From a virus (Duplodnaviria > Heunggongvirae > Uroviricota > Caudoviricetes), in IMG/VR virus record IMGVR_UViG_2751185971_000005, positions 1 through 35,421 of that record: a DNA stretch of 35,421 nt. The stretch is one strand, 5' to 3'. The position numbers and the translations under genes are program-made. Numbering within the stretch: position 1 is the stretch's first letter; the number at the start of each line of letters is the position of its first letter. The notes below the pieces were generated by a model that worked only from the letters and a program-made list of their open reading frames with translations, had not been told where the DNA came from and made no database searches. Below are positions 3,094 to 33,206 of this stretch, piece by piece.

Positions 3094-3165
3094 TTGGGGG
3101 TACCTCCACTAAACCGAACAGCAAATACCCCCATAAGTACCCCCATCTGACCGTAGATTTTGAGG

Positions 3166-3239
3166 GACTTTAGTAGGCGTCAAAAGACGAACGGGGCTTT
3201 AATACGCGGATTATAAGGGGTTTTGAAAGACTTTAGTAG
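3166..3239. repeat. Two 11-bp direct repeats GACTTTAGTAG (3166-3176 and 3229-3239) between int and the att core
   Basis: Seen in sequence; position is appropriate for integrase arm-type binding sites. Confidence 0.3.
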
Positions 3240-3258
3240 ACTTGGGGAGATGTTTGAA

Positions 3259-3304
3259 TGGTGCCGATAATAGGAGTCGAACCTACGACCTTCGCATTAC
3301 GAAT
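3259..3304 (-). repeat. att repeat: 46-bp 3' fragment of tRNA-Thr(CGU) (anticodon loop to CCA), not a complete tRNA
   Basis: Minus-strand reading gives ATTCGTAATGCGAAGGTCGTAGGTTCGACTCCTATTATCGGCACCA (anticodon loop, T-arm, acceptor 3' strand, CCA). The sequence beyond 3304 has no D-arm or 5' acceptor strand, so the tRNA is truncated, as expected for the displaced att repeat of a tRNA-integrating element. Confidence 0.8.
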
Positions 3305-3653
3305 TATAAGAATCCACTTCTAATTCAAAGCATTACCCCATCAACACTGCGCTCACACGTCCCACCACATCAAAACATGTAAAGCCTTGCAAGCCATTGC
3401 GAGGCCTTATGTGTCTCAGTTTTGTCCCACCTTGTATTACGACTTGCATAGCCAATGAAGATAAACGTGACGACAAACGGCGCAGCAGTCTTCTTTTCCT
3501 TCATACTTTCCCCACCCAGCATGCATACCTTTATGCCATAACTGAAGTTTATGTCTGTTATGAGCGAATTGCAGACATTAACGTTTGGTTAAGGGACGGG
3601 CTGTAGCCCGTCCCAGTGAGCGAAGCTTAATTTAGTCCGTGTGCAGCGCTTTG

Positions 3654-5084
3654 TTAGCCAAAACTGATGTGATTTTTAGTTAGATCTCTATATCTCTTAT
3701 CGTTGTGTACTTTATGGAGGATCGTTTGGTTGGCGATCAAAAAATCTATAATTTCTTGAATTCTTTCGCTACGAGCATTGGCTCTTAACAAAGTCAAAAC
3801 GCTTACCATATGTTGCTGGCAGTATTTGTTGTCTAAATTCACTCGCACTTCATTAGAGTGCATTGCTATAACTGTATTGATAATGTTTTGATCGCCAAGC
3901 ATGCCAAAAAACTGATCATACAAAGGTCGTCCCGCCGGAGAAACACCAGTATTATATGGTATTCCTTTACCAACACGACAAATCAAAACTGTTTTTATAA
4001 GCTTATGAACCCTCTCTAAAGGTATGTCATTTTCAGTCTTTAAATACGAAAGAATCTTCCGCATATGAGGGGGTTCATTATAAAAGTTATCCCAAGCATA
4101 CCTAGCCTCTAAGAGATCGTCGGCATGGCCGTCCAGTGATATAATTCTAGAGTCTAATGATTGATAACGATTACCATCACAAAACGTAAAAAACTCAATA
4201 CCTAAAGCATGTTTCTCGTTGTGAAGATTGTTCTTGTATCCGTCTAGCGTCACGCCGAGCTTGTATTTTACGTTATCACTGCTTTTATTCCAGATATGCG
4301 GAGCAAAAAGAGCGATATTTTTTCTGACAACATTTCCTGTTGAATCAGCTGTATATATGCCGAAAATACTATTGAGTAGATTGTCAGTATTCTGAAGCGA
4401 CAGATCATTCAAAGGTCTTTCCATGCTATGAATTGTGGCTTCATCAAGAACATCAGTGGATCTTTTTAGATTCTCAAGGAATGATTTTATTTGTATGGCA
4501 GACGCGGACGGTTTGTCGTTCAAAATATCTTGAACGCATGTTTGGAGCCAGCCAAGAAGTTCAAAAGCATTTATGGAGTATGAATTTGGGTGCGAAGCAC
4601 CAATGTCATTCCTCATAGTCAATATATGATTGAGCTTGGTGTAAACAACGTCAGATATTAATTCAAGTTTTCGGCAAGTATTAATAAGGGTGTTGTCTTT
4701 TAAACCAGAAAGATCTTCTTCGGTAGAATAAAGCTCTCTACGTCCTCCTCCAACTGCAGCATCAAAGAACATATCGAGGCCATAAACTACTACTTTTTCC
4801 CTTAAATTCAGTACAACTTCATTCCAAACATAATTTAACGATGCATCAAATAGTCCTATAGCCGCACCAGCAACGAACTTTGATAAATATCGAGCATCTC
4901 TTTTTACCTCAGCAGGTAAAGAATCTATGAATGTGGGGAGGTTTTTTTCAATAATTTGGCGCTCAGGGAGAGAGGCAATTATATTTTCGGTCGGCAAACC
5001 AAGATAGGATAAATATCCTTCAAATTTTGTTGTATCTGTGGAAAGTACCCCTGTTCCAGGTTTTGCAATCAATTCTGAACTCAT
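3654..5084 (-). CDS. Hypothetical protein (476 aa), AT-rich orphan gene; weak HEPN-like Rx4-6H motifs
   Basis: Long ORF with AGGAA Shine-Dalgarno 8 nt upstream of the ATG at 5084; markedly AT-rich compared with neighbours; contains RNDIGASH (residues 158-165) and RDLTKNH near the C-terminus. Confidence 0.7.
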   Translation of the reverse strand: MSSELIAKPGTGVLSTDTTKFEGYLSYLGLPTENIIASLPERQIIEKNLPTFIDSLPAEVKRDARYLSKFVAGAAIGLFDASLNYVWNEVVLNLREKVVVYGLDMFFDAAVGGGRRELYSTEEDLSGLKDNTLINTCRKLELISDVVYTKLNHILTMRNDIGASHPNSYSINAFELLGWLQTCVQDILNDKPSASAIQIKSFLENLKRSTDVLDEATIHSMERPLNDLSLQNTDNLLNSIFGIYTADSTGNVVRKNIALFAPHIWNKSSDNVKYKLGVTLDGYKNNLHNEKHALGIEFFTFCDGNRYQSLDSRIISLDGHADDLLEARYAWDNFYNEPPHMRKILSYLKTENDIPLERVHKLIKTVLICRVGKGIPYNTGVSPAGRPLYDQFFGMLGDQNIINTVIAMHSNEVRVNLDNKYCQQHMVSVLTLLRANARSERIQEIIDFLIANQTILHKVHNDKRYRDLTKNHISFG

Positions 5085-5700: not shown

Positions 5701-6978
5701 CTATGGTTTTTTATTAGAATCTTCGCCACTAAATAAATTATAATAAATTGATTTTATTAGATATCTGTCAGAATCTATATGGTCAGCACGAGTAGCATGC
5801 TCTAATGTTTCAAATGCTAGGGTTTGTGCGGCTTCAGCAAAAATTCCAGGCCAACCCTTACTCAGCATCGACAGTCCTTTAAGGACCCTTATCTGAATTT
5901 CCCTCATACTGGCACCATCGCGCGCAACAGGTGAGAAAAAGTCTTCAAGTAGATCGTTATTCTGAAGTGGTGCAACATGTACAGAAGGATATTTCACTTC
6001 TATTTCATCAGATTTATTCTGCGCGTAAGCGGAAAGTATACGTACACCTCTGCCAATGACATCAATGGCGGTTCCAGGATCGTTCACTGCGGGGGAAAGG
6101 GCTCGGCAGGCTATTTCGGCCATGACGCTAAGACAAAATCGGGGGTCCTGAGCAAATGAACGTACATCCGAGACAATAATCGTCTCAAGTAAATCGGTGC
6201 TGATTGATGACTCCTGGCCCTGACTCAGGTACAAAACTGGCGTGGACGGATGTATGAAACTGCCCGGCTGCGCCACGAGGTATACATGACGGGGATCATT
6301 GGTCAGCAGCTTACTGAGTTTCACCATATCAACATATTCAACATAGCCAATCTTTTTCGGATAAACTGCAACCGTTCCTTTCGGCTGTTCATTGTTCTCA
6401 AGCCATGGATATCCGCCGAGACAGGGATTTCTTGCTCTCGCAATAAATGTTTCGATGGCCGCCTGTTCTACTTTTGCCGTTGTCTCACCAACCCTCCCCA
6501 GAGAGGTCAAATGCTGTATCCAGCGAAGCAATGTGATGAGGATTAAGGCAATGACAACCAGTGTTACAATGAATAAAATGACTCTCCCCCTTTCTCCATA
6601 AGCTCCCATATTGAGGGCAATAATCCCTACCAGACTGAAGAGAAAAGAACCGATGAAGGTGGCCAGTACATTTTGTGTGGTGACGTCTTCAACAACTAAA
6701 CGAGTAGCTCTGGGAGTCACATTAGTAGTGGCTGAACCGTAGGCTGTGACCATGATGCTCAGCGAAAATGTGGTCACTGCCAGCATACTCGATGCCAGTA
6801 TGTTCAGAATGTTATCGACTGCTTCCGCACCAACCTTCACGGAAACCGACTCAGGTATCATTGATTTAAAAAGAATTGATAAAAGGGCCGTTATTATTGC
6901 GACAATTGCGAATAACGTTGCCCTGAACCATAGTTTTTTAAATGTCTGCTTCAGCATCCATTTCCAGCGTGAAATCAT
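5701..6978 (-). CDS. DUF2254-like predicted membrane protein
   Basis: N-terminal multi-pass hydrophobic region followed by a soluble domain; start placed at the ATG at 6978, which has a GAGGGA Shine-Dalgarno (the track's longest ORF starts at 6993). Confidence 0.7.
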   Translation of the reverse strand: MISRWKWMLKQTFKKLWFRATLFAIVAIITALLSILFKSMIPESVSVKVGAEAVDNILNILASSMLAVTTFSLSIMVTAYGSATTNVTPRATRLVVEDVTTQNVLATFIGSFLFSLVGIIALNMGAYGERGRVILFIVTLVVIALILITLLRWIQHLTSLGRVGETTAKVEQAAIETFIARARNPCLGGYPWLENNEQPKGTVAVYPKKIGYVEYVDMVKLSKLLTNDPRHVYLVAQPGSFIHPSTPVLYLSQGQESSISTDLLETIIVSDVRSFAQDPRFCLSVMAEIACRALSPAVNDPGTAIDVIGRGVRILSAYAQNKSDEIEVKYPSVHVAPLQNNDLLEDFFSPVARDGASMREIQIRVLKGLSMLSKGWPGIFAEAAQTLAFETLEHATRADHIDSDRYLIKSIYYNLFSGEDSNKKP

Positions 6979-20254: not shown

Positions 20255-20414
20255 GTGTGCGTTTCTCCTGCTCTATCCTGTTTGCCTGACTGACCAGTAA
20301 GGGAATTTCACTGATCGGCATATTCAGCAATTCGAAAGGATTAATGCGCCAGTAGCTGGCGCAGTCAAAGAAGCGATCAGTGAGGTATTCAGCCGTCAGG
20401 CCTGGAGGAAAAAA
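20247..20414 (-). CDS. Frameshift extension of the tail assembly chaperone (-1 frame; GT-like product)
   Basis: The -1 frame ORF overlaps the 3' end of the 89-aa chaperone; slippery heptamer T TTT TTC sits at plus-strand 20408-20414; extension ends at the tape measure start. Confidence 0.65.
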   Translation of the reverse strand, partial: FFPPGLTAEYLTDRFFDCASYWRINPFELLNMPISEIPLLVSQANRIEQEKRTHG

Positions 20415-20665
20415 CCAGCCACAAGCCACGCCGCTGCATTCAGGTCTGCCGGAGACATCTGGTCGACAGAGCTTTGCGGCACTTTCGCCAGCCGCACAAT
20501 GTATTTCGACACCACATGCGCCAGAAGTCTGACTGACTCATCCTGATTCATCTGGTAGGGATACCCAAGCTCGCGGACATCCTTCCCGGTGGGCTCATCA
20601 AACTCCAGTACGGAGAGTGTCTCGCCATGAGCAGTAATCGGTTTCTTTAACTCAAGCTCTTTCAT
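20396..20665 (-). CDS. Tail assembly chaperone (G-like; Mu gp41-like)
   Basis: 89 aa between tail tube and tape measure; ends just after the slippery heptamer. Confidence 0.75.
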   Translation of the reverse strand: MKELELKKPITAHGETLSVLEFDEPTGKDVRELGYPYQMNQDESVRLLAHVVSKYIVRLAKVPQSSVDQMSPADLNAAAWLVAGFFLQA

Positions 20666-21021
20666 TACTGGTAATCCCCTTCTTCACCGTGGAACTCAAG
20701 ATCAACCGTGCCTTCTTCGGCATTATGGTTCGCTTCGCCGTGCAGCCATGCAGACGACAGTACATAGACCTGACCGTTCGCCAGCTCGGCAGTGATTGTC
20801 ATCTCATCAGACGAGGTGATTTTGCTCACCGGAAAATTCTTCGGCACCTTGAAGGTCCCTTTGACATAAGGCGCACGGTGAGTTTCCTTGCGGTCCACTG
20901 AACCGTCCAGGCCGATGATGTCATCATTGACCGTCCTGTTCATGGGCACCTCAATGCCGCCGGTCAGCGATAGCTGCTGACCGTCAATTTTGAAATAACA
21001 GGTTCCCCCGATACGGGCCAT
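20665..21021 (-). CDS. Tail tube protein (Mu gp40/M-like)
   Basis: 118 aa; directly downstream of the sheath gene. Confidence 0.8.
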   Translation of the reverse strand: MARIGGTCYFKIDGQQLSLTGGIEVPMNRTVNDDIIGLDGSVDRKETHRAPYVKGTFKVPKNFPVSKITSSDEMTITAELANGQVYVLSSAWLHGEANHNAEEGTVDLEFHGEEGDYQ

Positions 21022-30332: not shown

Positions 30333-30683
30333 TCACTTAAGCCGTTCACGGGCCGTCTTCGCCTTGTGGCATGGCCAGCACAGGCTCTGCAGATTACCGT
30401 CTGCATCCGTACCGCCATGCGCTTTCGGAATGATGTGGTCCACAGTTCTGGCTTCAACGGCTCTCCCATTGCGCAGGCAGTTCTGACACAAATGATTATC
30501 ACGCTTCAGTATGCGCGCACGTATGGCATCCCATTTCGAGCCATAGCCACGCTGGTGGCGGCTCAGTCCGCGTTGATGTTGTGTCCAACCTTCGCCGCGA
30601 TGCTTATCGCAGTAGCCAGAACTGTCCGTCGTTGTGCCTGCACAGCCTCGCTTACGGCATGCACGAGGGATTTGTGATGGCAT
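30333..30683 (-). CDS. HNH endonuclease (terminase-associated)
   Basis: CxxC...HIIPKAHGGTD...N...CWPCH HNH/zinc motif; start at the ATG at 30683 with GAGGAG Shine-Dalgarno; directly upstream of the terminase genes. Confidence 0.88.
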   Translation of the reverse strand: MPSQIPRACRKRGCAGTTTDSSGYCDKHRGEGWTQHQRGLSRHQRGYGSKWDAIRARILKRDNHLCQNCLRNGRAVEARTVDHIIPKAHGGTDADGNLQSLCWPCHKAKTARERLK

Positions 30684-30725
30684 AGAATTTCGCTCCTCTA
30701 AAAAATATTCTGCTCTCACCGTCGG

Positions 30726-30908
30726 TCAGTTCTGCATACACTGCCGGACACTATCAACAATTTCACAGACCTGAGAAGCTGTATCGAAAAGCTGGCGCGC
30801 CTTATCCAGGCTGACGCAGCCCACCAGGAAAAAAGGCACCAGTATCGCTACCAGTGCCCATTTCACCGCCGTTCGCGGCATTCTGTGTGTCCAGTGTTTT
30901 CGCGTCAT
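30726..30908 (-). CDS. Small lipoprotein (60 aa; lipobox LVGC)
   Basis: Signal peptide AVKWALVAILVPFFLVGC then a 38-aa mature part with two Cys; its ATG overlaps the stop of the upstream small ORF (TGATATGA region). Confidence 0.6.
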   Translation of the reverse strand: MTRKHWTHRMPRTAVKWALVAILVPFFLVGCVSLDKARQLFDTASQVCEIVDSVRQCMQN

Positions 30909-30909
30909 A

Positions 30910-31023
30910 TCACCACCAACGCACAGCCCAAATCAGAACAGCGACCGCCACAAGGCGAATTGCAAAGGCCGCAGCCCTTGTCAAATCAAGGCTCGCGGGA
31001 GTTTCCACTTCAATACCTTTCAT
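30910..31023 (-). CDS. Small membrane peptide (37 aa), translationally coupled to the lipoprotein gene
   Basis: ATG at 31023; encodes MKGIEVETPASLDLTRAAAFAIRLVAVAVLIWAVRWW with one hydrophobic segment; below the ORF-track size cutoff. Confidence 0.45.
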   Translation of the reverse strand: MKGIEVETPASLDLTRAAAFAIRLVAVAVLIWAVRWW

Positions 31024-31119
31024 AATGGACAACCTCAAAAAGAATCTTTTATACTTTCCCACGAGGATTTTCTCCGTACTCACTACTCACAATTTCCTCT
31101 TTGACGTGAAAACTAAAAA

Positions 31120-31156
31120 CCCCGGACTGTTCCAGCAGCCGGGGTTTTGTTTTTTT
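31120..31156. terminator. Rho-independent terminator (CCCCGG-N13-CCGGGG flanked by A-run and T-run), bidirectional
   Basis: GC stem with flanking AAAAA and TTTTGTTTTTTT; lies just downstream of the 93-aa gene on the minus strand. Confidence 0.7.
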
Positions 31157-31436
31157 ATTTACTGCCCTGGGTGCGGCATCTGGCTATTTCATTCCTGGCT
31201 TTAGTGTCACCGCGACAGATACAACGAACCGTGTCACCCGCCAGCGTAGTGATGTAGGCCTCATCCGTTTTTTCCACCGAAATGCATGGTACATTTCCAT
31301 CCAGGCAATACTCCACCAGGGCAGCAAGGTGAGTGTTGCGCGGGTAAAATTCCAGGCGATACATATTCCCCAGAACATGCACTTCTTCAACCTGGCGCCC
31401 ATCTTCCGTTACCGTGATTTTTTTCAGCGCGTACAT
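31155..31436 (-). CDS. Hypothetical Cys-containing protein (93 aa) downstream of the endolysin
   Basis: ATG at 31436 with GGAGG Shine-Dalgarno 5 nt upstream; five Cys including a CxC pair; no transmembrane segment, so not a canonical spanin. Confidence 0.55.
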   Translation of the reverse strand: MYALKKITVTEDGRQVEEVHVLGNMYRLEFYPRNTHLAALVEYCLDGNVPCISVEKTDEAYITTLAGDTVRCICRGDTKARNEIARCRTQGSK

Positions 31437-31506: not shown

Positions 31507-31890
31507 CTATCGCTTCAATTGAAAATGTGGGCCGTCTTTAAGCGTCCGCCAGTCCCCGCCCCATTCGATGGCTGTTCCCAGCTCTGCGGCAGCCTGCTTA
31601 AATGCCTGCGCGATTTTCTCGTACAGAGGCCAGTCCCATGACACCTGGCTGCCAACCCAGGCAACAACATCCACCGCATCACCGGTCAGGTGGCGGCTGT
31701 TCATGGTCTGGCTTTTCCCTTCCGCGACCAGCTGTTTCTGGCGTTCTTTCGTGCGCAGCCCTTCCGTAATACCGAAATCAACCTCCGTCAGCTCCAGCGC
31801 ACGGCGAACGACAGCAACCAGCTGTGGTTTAACGCCCTCCAGATTCTTTTCGCTGCGACGACTGAATCTGAATTTACCCGACATATTCAC
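31507..31890 (-). CDS. Endolysin, peptidase M15 family (zinc metallopeptidase type)
   Basis: 127 aa with SRHLTGDAVD ... DGPHFQL zinc-ligand pattern typical of M15 endolysins; sits within the holin cluster. Confidence 0.85.
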   Translation of the reverse strand: MNMSGKFRFSRRSEKNLEGVKPQLVAVVRRALELTEVDFGITEGLRTKERQKQLVAEGKSQTMNSRHLTGDAVDVVAWVGSQVSWDWPLYEKIAQAFKQAAAELGTAIEWGGDWRTLKDGPHFQLKR

Positions 31891-32162
31891 CTCAATAATG
31901 GAAAGATTTTTGTGACGTTCCCGCGCGCGCGTATCACCAGCACGCAGAACAGCAGATTAAAAAACACTTCCAGCCAGCCCGTTGCTAACGGGCGACCACA
32001 CAGATAGCTGAGGGGCGCAAAGGCATACAGCAGCATCAGCAACCAGGCCAGCCATGACATCAGCGGTTTATGTCTGGAATCACGACGACGATAAAAAAAG
32101 AGCGTCAGCACGATAACCGTGCATAACGCCACATTCAGCAATCCGGGAAGGTTACTTAACAT
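31887..32162 (-). CDS. Membrane protein of the lysis cassette (91 aa; holin/antiholin-like)
   Basis: ATG at 32162 preceded by GGAGGAGG; several hydrophobic segments; overlaps the holin stop by 11 nt and the endolysin start by 4 nt. Confidence 0.6.
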   Translation of the reverse strand: MLSNLPGLLNVALCTVIVLTLFFYRRRDSRHKPLMSWLAWLLMLLYAFAPLSYLCGRPLATGWLEVFFNLLFCVLVIRARGNVTKIFPLLR

Positions 32163-32544
32163 TGCCGCCTCCTCCACCCCGCAGGCGGGAGAACAGGCCG
32201 GACACCAGCGATGCAATATCCTGCTGGTGGATGAACGAGAGAATCTTCACCGACACCACCGCCACCAGCACCGCACACAGTGCATCCGCCGATGTACCGT
32301 CATAACCTGTTTTTGATGCAATCCAGGCTGACAGCACATGCGCACCCAGCACGCCAACGATAAACGACACCAGAAAATGCGCCGCCACACGCCAGGCTGA
32401 AAGCGCCTGCGGCATCGTTGCCACAAATAACGCCCCAGCGAACGCCCCAAACACAATCCCGAAATCCGTTCCGGTAAACAGCCCGAATACCGTCGCCCCG
32501 CCGAGCGCCGCAGCCGTACCGGAACCGGACAAGGGTTCAGACAT
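32152..32544 (-). CDS. Putative holin (130 aa, Gly/Ala-rich transmembrane segments)
   Basis: ATG at 32544 with AGGAG Shine-Dalgarno; MSEPLSGSGTAAALGGATVFG... followed by several transmembrane segments; located upstream of the endolysin. Confidence 0.7.
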   Translation of the reverse strand: MSEPLSGSGTAAALGGATVFGLFTGTDFGIVFGAFAGALFVATMPQALSAWRVAAHFLVSFIVGVLGAHVLSAWIASKTGYDGTSADALCAVLVAVVSVKILSFIHQQDIASLVSGLFSRLRGGGGGNVK

Positions 32545-32631
32545 ACTTTTTCTCCTGTAAATAAAAAAGGGCCACCAACGACCCGTAAAAAACACCCGTC
32601 AAAGGCACCCGCAGATACCTTTTGTGTGGTG

Positions 32632-32784
32632 TTATTCAGATTTACGCAGTAAAGGCCAGAGTACGGCCAGCGCCATCGCCACCAGCACACCATCTGCCAG
32701 CACCGACATCAGCCGTCCGGTGAAATCCACCGCCACTACCAGAAACAGCAGGATGGCAGCCAGCACAAGGCGCGCACTTTTCAC
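32632..32784 (-). CDS. Small membrane protein (50 aa), GTG start overlapping the TerB-like stop
   Basis: GTG at 32784-32782 overlaps the TGA at 32783-32781 (GTGA); encodes VKSARLVLAAILLFLVVAVDFTGRLMSVLADGVLVAMALAVLWPLLRKSE; below the track's size cutoff. Confidence 0.45.
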   Translation of the reverse strand: MKSARLVLAAILLFLVVAVDFTGRLMSVLADGVLVAMALAVLWPLLRKSE

Positions 32785-33206
32785 AGGTACTGCTCCAGCG
32801 GCAACTGCAGCGCCTGAGCAATTTTCTTGAGCTGCGCTTCTTCATCCGGACCAATGCCATCCTGGTCAGCAATATCGAGACACAGGCACAGCACATCAAC
32901 CGCTTCGGCGGTTCCTGCCACATCAGCCAGTTCACGCAAAGCCTGAGCATTCGCACTACGAGGTGACGCTTCATAACGGGCGCGGATATTTGCACTCATT
33001 TGTGCAATCTCACCGGAGAACGGCGCAAAGGCAGGAAGTGCTGCAATGGTTTTTTCCAGTACAGCGATTTCTTTCGCATCACAGGTGCCGTCGGCGAATG
33101 CTATGGAATACGCGCCCCAGACGGTCGCCTCCACTGCGTCGCGGTTCTCCATCTTCTTCACTTCAGTAATGGCCTTGCGGGTTTTCTTTTTGAAAATACC
33201 AAACAT
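32781..33206 (-). CDS. TerB-like (tellurite-resistance TerB / DjlA N-terminal domain family) protein
   Basis: 141 aa with paired AFADG...E / DQDG...EE helical motif pattern typical of TerB-fold proteins. Confidence 0.65.
   Translation of the reverse strand: MFGIFKKKTRKAITEVKKMENRDAVEATVWGAYSIAFADGTCDAKEIAVLEKTIAALPAFAPFSGEIAQMSANIRARYEASPRSANAQALRELADVAGTAEAVDVLCLCLDIADQDGIGPDEEAQLKKIAQALQLPLEQYL

Follow-up and report, generated by a model that had tools for sequence, protein, structure and literature searches.

A 60-aa lipoprotein in the Rz/Rz1 slot and an inserted 37-aa membrane-peptide gene at the 3' end of a P27-like prophage lysis cassette

The lipoprotein gene and the Rz/Rz1 slot

The 3' end of the late lysis operon was analyzed in a P27-like Escherichia coli prophage, represented by a 35,421-nucleotide stretch of viral DNA (IMG/VR record IMGVR_UViG_2751185971_000005, positions 1 to 35,421; hereafter the window), in whose numbering coordinates are given unless another locus is named. 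Two independent genes under selection lie here: one for a 37-amino acid (aa) single-helix membrane peptide (30910..31023, minus strand, including the stop codon) and one for a 60-aa prolipoprotein (30726..30908, minus strand, including the stop codon), which is the last gene of the lysis cassette and occupies the slot held in relatives by the Rz/Rz1 spanin genes. The peptide gene ends one base before the lipoprotein ATG, giving a junction that reads TGG TGG TGA T ATG, and its final codons UGG UGG UGA constitute a Shine-Dalgarno-like GGUGGUGA for the downstream gene; since the last codons of the peptide thereby supply the ribosome-binding site of the slot gene, translational coupling of the two is likely. 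An earlier note, made from the letters of this DNA, had described a single-helix peptide, a lipoprotein with lipobox LVGC and two cysteines in its mature part, a composition that is not proline-rich, and a location after a strong terminator (hairpin 31144-31120) and before an HNH endonuclease gene, which is followed by the P27-type small and large terminase subunits (TerS and TerL). All of these were borne out, and only the reported overlap of the peptide stop with the lipoprotein ATG had to be replaced by the one-base spacer.

The signal peptide of the prolipoprotein comprises codons 1-30, with a basic N-terminus followed by a hydrophobic core, and the lipobox LVGC is encoded at 30827-30816, leaving a mature part of 30 aa from Cys31, CVSLDKARQLFDTASQVCEIVDSVRQCMQN. 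Cys31 is the predicted lipidation site, with cleavage by signal peptidase II, and the valine at position +2 predicts sorting to the outer membrane. A lipobox with its cysteine and no aspartate at +2 is as found in outer-membrane spanin subunits (o-spanins), and the lipobox was invariant in 27 relatives. Two further periplasmic cysteines fall in the stretch 30738..30767 (minus strand) inside the predicted amphipathic helix, where Cys48 (codon 30767-30765) was nearly invariant and Cys57 (codon 30740-30738) was retained in most relatives, both being present also in distant ones. An AlphaFold2 (AF2) model consisted of one helix over residues 12-59 with a predicted local distance difference test score (pLDDT) of ~70, and the mature part was amphipathic with a net charge of -1 and a hydrophobic moment (muH) of 0.35, a value that 4% of shuffled sequences equaled. 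The hydropathy profile contained no hydrophobic segment past residue 31, and the C-terminus reads RQCMQN. The 29 residues past the lipidated cysteine would extend over ~4.4 nm as the helix of the AF2 model, in which the hydrophobic positions of the mature part appear to be spaced in heptads that place Cys48 in the core; as Cys48 and Cys57 would point to opposite faces of a continuous helix, an inter-chain disulfide would be likelier than an intra-chain one.

Purifying selection in the lipoprotein frame (pooled dN/dS 0.17 over 49 distinct DNA sequences), with no such signal in the control frames, identified it as a real gene, and its G+C content was the same as that of the neighboring genes. 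A 51-aa form was rejected because Met1 was kept in every upstream context and Met10 was valine in some relatives, such as L101 and P0017. The family is small, with 25 matches in a profile search of 1.84 billion representative proteins, and enterobacterial, the named sources being nearly all Escherichia or Salmonella; the gene was present in 353 of 5426 complete E. coli genomes. One strong PHROG match was obtained over the full length, to phrog_7528, a family with no assigned function. Searches of Pfam and NCBIfam at E up to 1 gave no match, including the families Bor, Cor, Rz1 (PF06085), Phage_lysis (PF03245), and Lysis_col, and PADLOC and PDB sequence searches with the lipoprotein and the 37-aa peptide were likewise without a match. 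A terminator-like hairpin inside the gene (30834-30859, minus strand; 11 pairs, then TTTTTTCC) coincides with the part of the signal peptide that reads ALVAILVPFF and may be only a by-product of these codons.

The gene order downstream of the endolysin was determined in 80 viral contigs picked solely for a close relative of the window's endolysin, 79 of which could be scored. An intact lipoprotein gene followed in 69 of these 79 loci, a fragment of it in five, Rz in one, and neither in four, which makes the lipoprotein the normal last gene of the cassette. Its ATG lay 15 nucleotides (nt) past the endolysin stop in 47 loci, and the usual cassette is holin, holin, M15 or GH108 endolysin, and lipoprotein. 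Distant members of the family (P0224, P0236), which have in common only the lipobox, an EKAR-like motif, and the two cysteines, were encoded 3-6 nt past an M15 endolysin gene, one of them in a cassette with a different holin family (Phage_holin_3_1), and no membrane protein gene adjoined the lipoprotein gene of these distant members.

The same position is used by Rz/Rz1. The 37-aa gene spans 4001-4114 in two groups of contexts, one with the lipoprotein gene beginning at 4116 (P0124) and the other with Rz beginning at 4116 (P0133), and a further group (P0134) has the backbone of the window (holin_8, holin_3_7, M15, HNH, Terminase_4) with Rz and its embedded Rz1 from the same base. Yersinia loci with a GH108 endolysin likewise carry Rz/Rz1 in the slot. 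Among 118 informative loci, 97 had the lipoprotein and no Rz, and the other 21 had Rz and no intact lipoprotein gene. The sole prophage found with both, an Stx2 prophage of serotype O104:H4, has a frameshifted and unannotated lipoprotein gene. This remnant (L026, E. coli O104:H4 2011C-3493, 4001-4184; 79% identity) lies ~750 bp downstream of an intact 37-aa gene and Rz/Rz1, with a reverse-oriented lipopolysaccharide (LPS) core heptose(II)-phosphate phosphatase gene between them. In the complete phages phiP27 and phiSTEC1575-Stx2k neither an Rz homologue nor another late-region lipoprotein was detected, nor was either found in the window, and a scan of the same three sequences for a second lipoprotein or an embedded Rz1-like frame identified only unrelated early-region lipoproteins. 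The conservation check and the search for a canonical Rz/Rz1 pair elsewhere that the earlier note had proposed thus came out as both reading frames conserved in related prophages, with the starts of the 37-aa and 60-aa frames retained, and no such pair in the window, phiP27, or phiSTEC1575-Stx2k.

The lipoprotein has already been predicted as an o-spanin in the literature, but it appears to function with no inner-membrane subunit (i-spanin). A survey of spanins gave phiP27 a 'separated' two-component spanin, the shortest in the survey, with an o-spanin at 20706-20861 in a 51-aa form and an i-spanin at 20348-20542, and found no recognizable spanin in ~13% of phages of Gram-negative hosts (Kongari et al., 2018; PMC6139136). 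This o-spanin is a direct homologue of the 60-aa lipoprotein (~92% identity). The published i-spanin ORF (open reading frame) is a different one from the 37-aa peptide; it has a TTG start, matches no family, and runs (L002, 3158-3352, plus strand) antisense to a 90-aa ORF (3142-3414, minus strand) that matches phrog_36812 over its full length, for which reasons the i-spanin assignment looks spurious. In the original annotation of phiP27 (L32), a wrong frame was used for the lipoprotein region.

The 37-aa peptide gene, its leader, and a predicted antisense RNA

The 37-aa product, MKGIEVETPASLDLTRAAAFAIRLVAVAVLIWAVRWW, has a polar N-terminal part of 16 residues followed by hydrophobic residues 17-37 that continue to the C-terminus, with A17, F20, A21, I22, R23, A28, W32, R35, W36, and W37 invariant; on these features it is a putative inner-membrane protein under very strong selection. 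Against the lambdoid copies, in which 24 of 114 bases differ, 18.5-19.5 differences were synonymous and 4.5-5.5 non-synonymous, corresponding to a proportion of ~0.7 at synonymous sites (pS), ~0.06 at non-synonymous sites (pN), and a dN/dS of 0.03-0.04. Variable sites were distributed 6/1/23 over the three codon positions and the two other frames showed the opposite pattern, so that purifying selection in this frame establishes the ORF as a real gene. A 57-aa form with a GTG start, annotated in phiSTEC1575-Stx2k, was rejected because a 5-nt indel breaks its frame in the lambdoid copies and conservation of the bases upstream has the pattern of non-coding sequence, the correct start being the ATG of the 37-aa frame.

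Relatives of the peptide were found in PHROGs 4493, 1115, and 3246, all with unassigned functions, and neither Pfam, including its toxin families, nor NCBIfam gave a match. A tblastn search of phages with the peptide returned no match and a DNA search did find copies; a literature search with the peptide sequences found no paper. A profile search of genome contigs with the peptide alignment had a single match, in Streptomyces, which was discarded as spurious. The K-12 protein YnfT, also of 37 aa and encoded by the Qin prophage, is unrelated, and in Qin itself rrrQ is fused to rzpQ and no peptide gene is present.

The 37-aa gene does not depend on the lipoprotein. It preceded only 14 of the 69 intact lipoprotein genes in the endolysin-anchored sample, the other 55 having no peptide gene, and it is the commoner of the two in E. 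coli, where it was found in 863 of 5426 complete genomes (~16%); of its 864 matching records, 670 had 60-80% identity. The most frequent lambdoid variant (P0133) was sampled at ten places, each of which had the order class II holin, lysozyme R, 37-aa gene, Rz/Rz1, with spacing identical to that in window-type cassettes, and the gene lies directly upstream of Rz/Rz1 in hundreds of Shiga-toxin prophages, including those of serotypes O157, O26, O111, and O104, as well as in P27-type prophages. An intact copy was also identified in Cronobacter turicensis (L113, 2161-2274), where it follows a tail-spike gene at the border of a prophage remnant, keeps the antisense promoter-like site and the hairpin described below, and has no lysis gene downstream. 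The 37-aa gene is therefore part of a separate inserted module, composed of bidirectional terminator, conserved leader, and ORF, that sits just upstream of whichever gene fills the slot. Other small membrane ORFs occur between the endolysin and the slot gene (L055, 5662-5844 and ~5865-5996; L003, 2652-2795), among them a 47-48-aa paralogue of the peptide (phrog_1115, motif RAVAFAIKW) and a 44-aa single-helix ORF (phrog_4906), and a family of such small membrane peptides seems to populate this position.

The terminator (31109..31153, minus strand) is a bidirectional intrinsic one and stands between the lysis genes upstream and the genes for the peptide and the lipoprotein; its G+C hairpin at 31144-31120, which is flanked by an A-tract and a U-tract, had a minimum free energy of -21.8 kcal/mol (z = -4.2). 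The stem was kept with compensatory changes in 3 of 13 pairs and is found upstream of the peptide gene in lambdoid prophages also. A variable stretch of ~55 nt separates it from the conserved leader (31024..31060, minus strand) that precedes the peptide ATG and contains the Shine-Dalgarno sequence GAGG at 31036-31033. On the plus strand this leader carries a sigma-70-like promoter, with TGGACA (31026-31031) and TATACT (31050-31055) 18 nt apart and 10 of 12 consensus matches, and the scan recovered TGGACA-18-TATACT at this place independently in the window, a lambdoid E. coli locus (L015), and the Cronobacter locus (L113). Between the P27 and lambdoid types the leader block was identical at 36 of 41 bases compared with 90 of 114 in the ORF (21% differ), and the 32 leader bases nearest the ATG, which hold both hexamers and the spacer, had one mismatch.

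From the conserved promoter to the bidirectional terminator extends a predicted antisense RNA of ~100 nt (31061..31160, plus strand) that would be complementary to the 5' leader of the peptide mRNA; its promoter and terminator were kept in all classes and its body differed between them. Rfam gave only sub-threshold matches to this RNA, and a 28-aa variant of the peptide (L003) has no promoter block. A scan for the sigma-70 consensus, the only promoter type scanned for, found no sense-strand promoter-like site between the terminator and the peptide ATG in the three contexts (window, lambdoid, Cronobacter). Among previously described RNAs, the Pas small RNAs are not the predicted one, as they map upstream of the holin gene, and the Sp4 and Sp17 regions of O157 Sakai, fetched for comparison with the Hfq-bound EcOnc RNAs (Tree, 2014), contained no lysis region past the endolysin where the 37-aa gene would sit.

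The remainder of the cassette

The order of transcription in the window is TerB-like gene, Phage_holin_8, Phage_holin_3_7, Peptidase_M15_4, a weak hairpin, a 92-aa ORF, the strong terminator, the 37-aa and 60-aa ORFs, HNH, P27-type TerS, and TerL, with all cassette genes on the minus strand. The two holins and the endolysin, which make up the rest of the lysis cassette (31507..32595, minus strand), were assigned by family matches to Phage_holin_8 (32595-32152), Phage_holin_3_7 (32216-31887), and Peptidase_M15_4 (31890-31507). Downstream of the lipoprotein gene, the HNH endonuclease gene (30333..30683, minus strand) is the first of the P27-type packaging module; the 128-aa form of it with a GTG start at 30719 is probably too long, the homologue annotated by the Prokaryotic Genome Annotation Pipeline (PGAP) having 116 aa.

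The 92-aa ORF (31155-31433, minus strand; phrog_33497) between the endolysin gene and the terminator has no Pfam match and no membrane segment and is flanked by terminator-like hairpins at 31492-31472 and 31144-31120. It is present in phiSTEC1575-Stx2k and absent in most relatives, in which the lipoprotein gene begins 15 nt past the endolysin, and resembles an insertion of the moron type. The holins are directly preceded (32632-33206, minus strand) by the TerB-like gene (141 aa; phrog_632, 'tellurite resistance') and by a membrane ORF of 50 aa, which matches a DUF3927 protein of relatives by position only; the pair of a TerB-like gene and an ORF in the 50-aa slot was found again in many related loci.

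Interpretation and comparison with known systems

The evidence on gene order and selection favors, at a probability of roughly 0.55, a reading in which the lipoprotein is a partner-less lysis protein of the outer-membrane step and the 37-aa peptide belongs to an inserted small membrane-peptide module. The endolysin would remove the wall, and the lipoprotein would then bring about, or be required in, the breach of the outer membrane that completes lysis, acting without an inner-membrane partner that spans the periplasm. Disulfide-linked coiled-coil oligomers of the lipoprotein might destabilize the outer membrane, or the protein might act like the colicin lysis lipoproteins by activation of outer-membrane phospholipase A. 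Translation of the slot gene would probably be coupled to that of the peptide, for which the possible roles are lysis accessory, lysis regulator, or small toxin.

Several points count against this reading. The functions of both families are inferred from sequence. A bridging-and-fusing spanin mechanism cannot apply, because a 30-aa mature part cannot span the periplasm and no partner in the inner membrane was detected, and the disruptin mechanism does not fit a protein that by its sequence is not cationic. The 118 loci on which the exclusivity with Rz/Rz1 stands were retrieved by means of either the two proteins or a single endolysin family, and many of them are closely related; the sequences scanned whole were the window, with the early region of the prophage lying outside it, and two complete phages. 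The position in the cassette is circumstantial, as lambda bor likewise adjoins Rz/Rz1, and P27-type phages could be among the ~13% that are spaninless, the lipoprotein doing something else.

The earlier note had offered two readings of the pair, one of them a minimal two-component spanin in which the peptide is the obligate inner-membrane and the lipoprotein the outer-membrane subunit. The genes adjoin and are probably translationally coupled, they bring a membrane peptide and a lipoprotein together in a lysis cassette of a window with no other spanin, and a very short separated spanin was accepted for phiP27 (Kongari et al., 2018; PMC6139136). The part of this proposal that concerns the lipoprotein held, as it lies in the Rz/Rz1 slot and excludes Rz/Rz1, but the pairing did not: the peptide gene is missing before 55 of the 69 intact lipoprotein genes, 47 loci having the lipoprotein ATG 15 nt past the endolysin stop; the peptide is also encoded before full-length Rz/Rz1, for which no further subunit is required; it persists alone in the Cronobacter prophage remnant; and the ORF taken as the phiP27 i-spanin is not the peptide. 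The at most 16 non-membrane residues of the peptide and the 29 of the lipoprotein past its cysteine are too short for a periplasm of ~20 nm, and a peptide whose hydrophobic segment is C-terminal instead of N-terminal, with no more than those 16 residues outside the membrane, cannot be an i-spanin. The comparative data thus largely refute the minimal pair, which is now very improbable. The other reading in the note was a moron of the bor/cor type. The lipoprotein would then serve lysogenic conversion or exclusion like Bor, Cor, or T5 Llp (serum resistance, receptor block, or superinfection exclusion), and P27-type phages would be left with no outer-membrane lysis protein. Small lipoproteins of this kind are known from phages, lambda bor adjoins Rz/Rz1, ~13% of phages have no identifiable spanin, a terminator precedes the gene pair in the window, and the lipoprotein has no sequence similarity to any spanin family. 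It is disfavored, and unlikely overall, in view of a gene that lies on the strand of the late genes, 3-15 nt past the endolysin stop in most relatives and therefore with no room for its own promoter there; that in the window has neither a promoter-like site on its strand nor a terminator after it; that equals its neighbors in G+C; that is strictly alternative to Rz/Rz1 at one base position and decayed where Rz/Rz1 is present; that stays linked to an M15 endolysin even in distant relatives with another holin family; and whose product matches neither Bor, Cor, nor any other lipoprotein family in Pfam. The term moron would sooner suit the module of terminator and peptide.

A third explanation concerns the peptide only and is compatible with a partner-less lysis role of the lipoprotein. 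It holds that the peptide and the opposite-strand promoter form a module like a type I toxin-antitoxin system or otherwise under antisense control, with a cis RNA of ~100 nt, inserted before the last lysis gene. The peptide has the size and shape of a type I toxin (37 aa, one hydrophobic helix, conserved arginine and tryptophan), TGGACA-18-TATACT recurs independently at the same place in three loci with bases much better conserved than the synonymous sites of the adjoining ORF, the terminator has U-tracts on both sides and a stem kept through compensatory changes, and the module moves between contexts and is found by itself in a decayed prophage. The RNA and its promoter are known as predictions only, however, and the conserved block also holds the Shine-Dalgarno sequence of the peptide, so that translation alone could explain its conservation. 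The predicted RNA does not cover the ribosome-binding site; with no sense promoter found for the peptide, the antisense RNA may have no toxin mRNA to act on in a lysogen; Rfam gave no match that reached threshold and Pfam none to a toxin family; and the 28-aa variant of L003 has no promoter block. On balance the antisense module is rather doubtful.

For phages that have no recognizable spanin, the disruptin is to our knowledge the only alternative way past the outer membrane shown by experiment so far. Near-identical P27-type prophages that differ only in carrying Rz/Rz1 or the 60-aa lipoprotein from one base provide a clean natural test, and because they differ only at the slot, swap, deletion, and complementation would be straightforward. 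The published assignment is corrected in that the 'shortest two-component spanin' of phiP27 is probably one with no i-spanin. The 37-aa gene is strongly selected and unannotated, and any effect of it on the timing of lysis would bear on the release of toxin and phage. A wider proposal can be put forward tentatively, at less than even odds, in which a lipid-anchored amphipathic helix of 30 aa is a third, partner-less way of breaching the outer membrane, interchangeable with Rz/Rz1, and the peptide with its predicted antisense RNA is an unrecognized control or toxin module that hundreds of E. coli prophages, Shiga-toxin and other ones, carry before the last lysis gene.

Compared with known systems, the lipoprotein is similar to Rz1, the o-spanin of lambda, and to the phiP27 o-spanin in being a ~60-aa lipoprotein precursor encoded by the last gene of the cassette at the Rz/Rz1 position and in its conserved periplasmic cysteines. 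Unlike Rz1, which is proline-rich, it is helical and has no sequence similarity (PF06085 was not matched), its gene is neither embedded in nor overlapping an i-spanin gene, no credible i-spanin accompanies it, and its 30-aa mature part is too short to reach across the periplasm. It thus shares with two-component spanins the outer-membrane lipoprotein, the position downstream of the endolysin, and the periplasmic cysteines, but not the i-spanin subunit, the bridging length, or membership of a known family; periplasmic cysteines are typical of two-component spanins (~96% of systems) and not universal. The unimolecular spanin gp11 of phage T1 is also a single product of the outer-membrane step with an N-terminal lipoprotein signal, but has a C-terminal transmembrane domain and a ~100-aa beta-rich periplasmic domain, whereas the lipoprotein is helical and polar-ended and, having no C-terminal transmembrane domain, is not a unimolecular spanin. 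The disruptin is likewise small, amphipathic, and helical and stands in for the spanin in a phage with no Rz/Rz1, but it is not known to be lipidated, in contrast to the predicted lipidation of the 60-aa protein. The example from phiKT, gp28, is a cationic peptide (10.1101/515445), and the net charge of -1 sets the lipoprotein apart from it.

Lambda Bor, Cor of phi80 and N15, and T5 Llp are also small phage lipoproteins, and bor adjoins lysis genes, but the lipoprotein gene differs in having no transcription signals of its own, in being co-oriented with and almost fused to the endolysin gene, and in excluding Rz/Rz1. The colicin lysis proteins or bacteriocin release proteins (BRP; Kil, Lysis_col) are precursors of ~45-52 aa with mature parts of ~28-35 aa that permeabilize the envelope alone via phospholipase A and are not known to contain extra cysteines. 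They belong to the same mature size class as the 30 aa here and are likewise single small lipoproteins that end a release operon; with no sequence similarity (Pfam, E up to 1), the likeness is one of size and role only, and they may serve as the nearest functional analogy for the lipoprotein, as a lead and not as a classification. For the peptide, Hok, TisB, ZorO, and ShoB are comparable as very small inner-membrane peptides, with a single helix and a cis-antisense RNA gene beside them, both features being predictions in the present case; they differ in that the peptide showed no sequence similarity to any type I toxin family in Pfam and no sense promoter was found for it. Lcc6 of phage LambdaSo has 65 aa and a transmembrane domain at its N-terminus, and its gene lies far away from the lysis cassette (10.1101/2024.01.23.576932). 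By description the peptide is distinct from it, with a C-terminal membrane segment and a gene inside the cassette, and the comparison is by analogy only, with a small membrane protein that was unannotated and is essential for phage lysis (10.1101/2024.01.23.576932).

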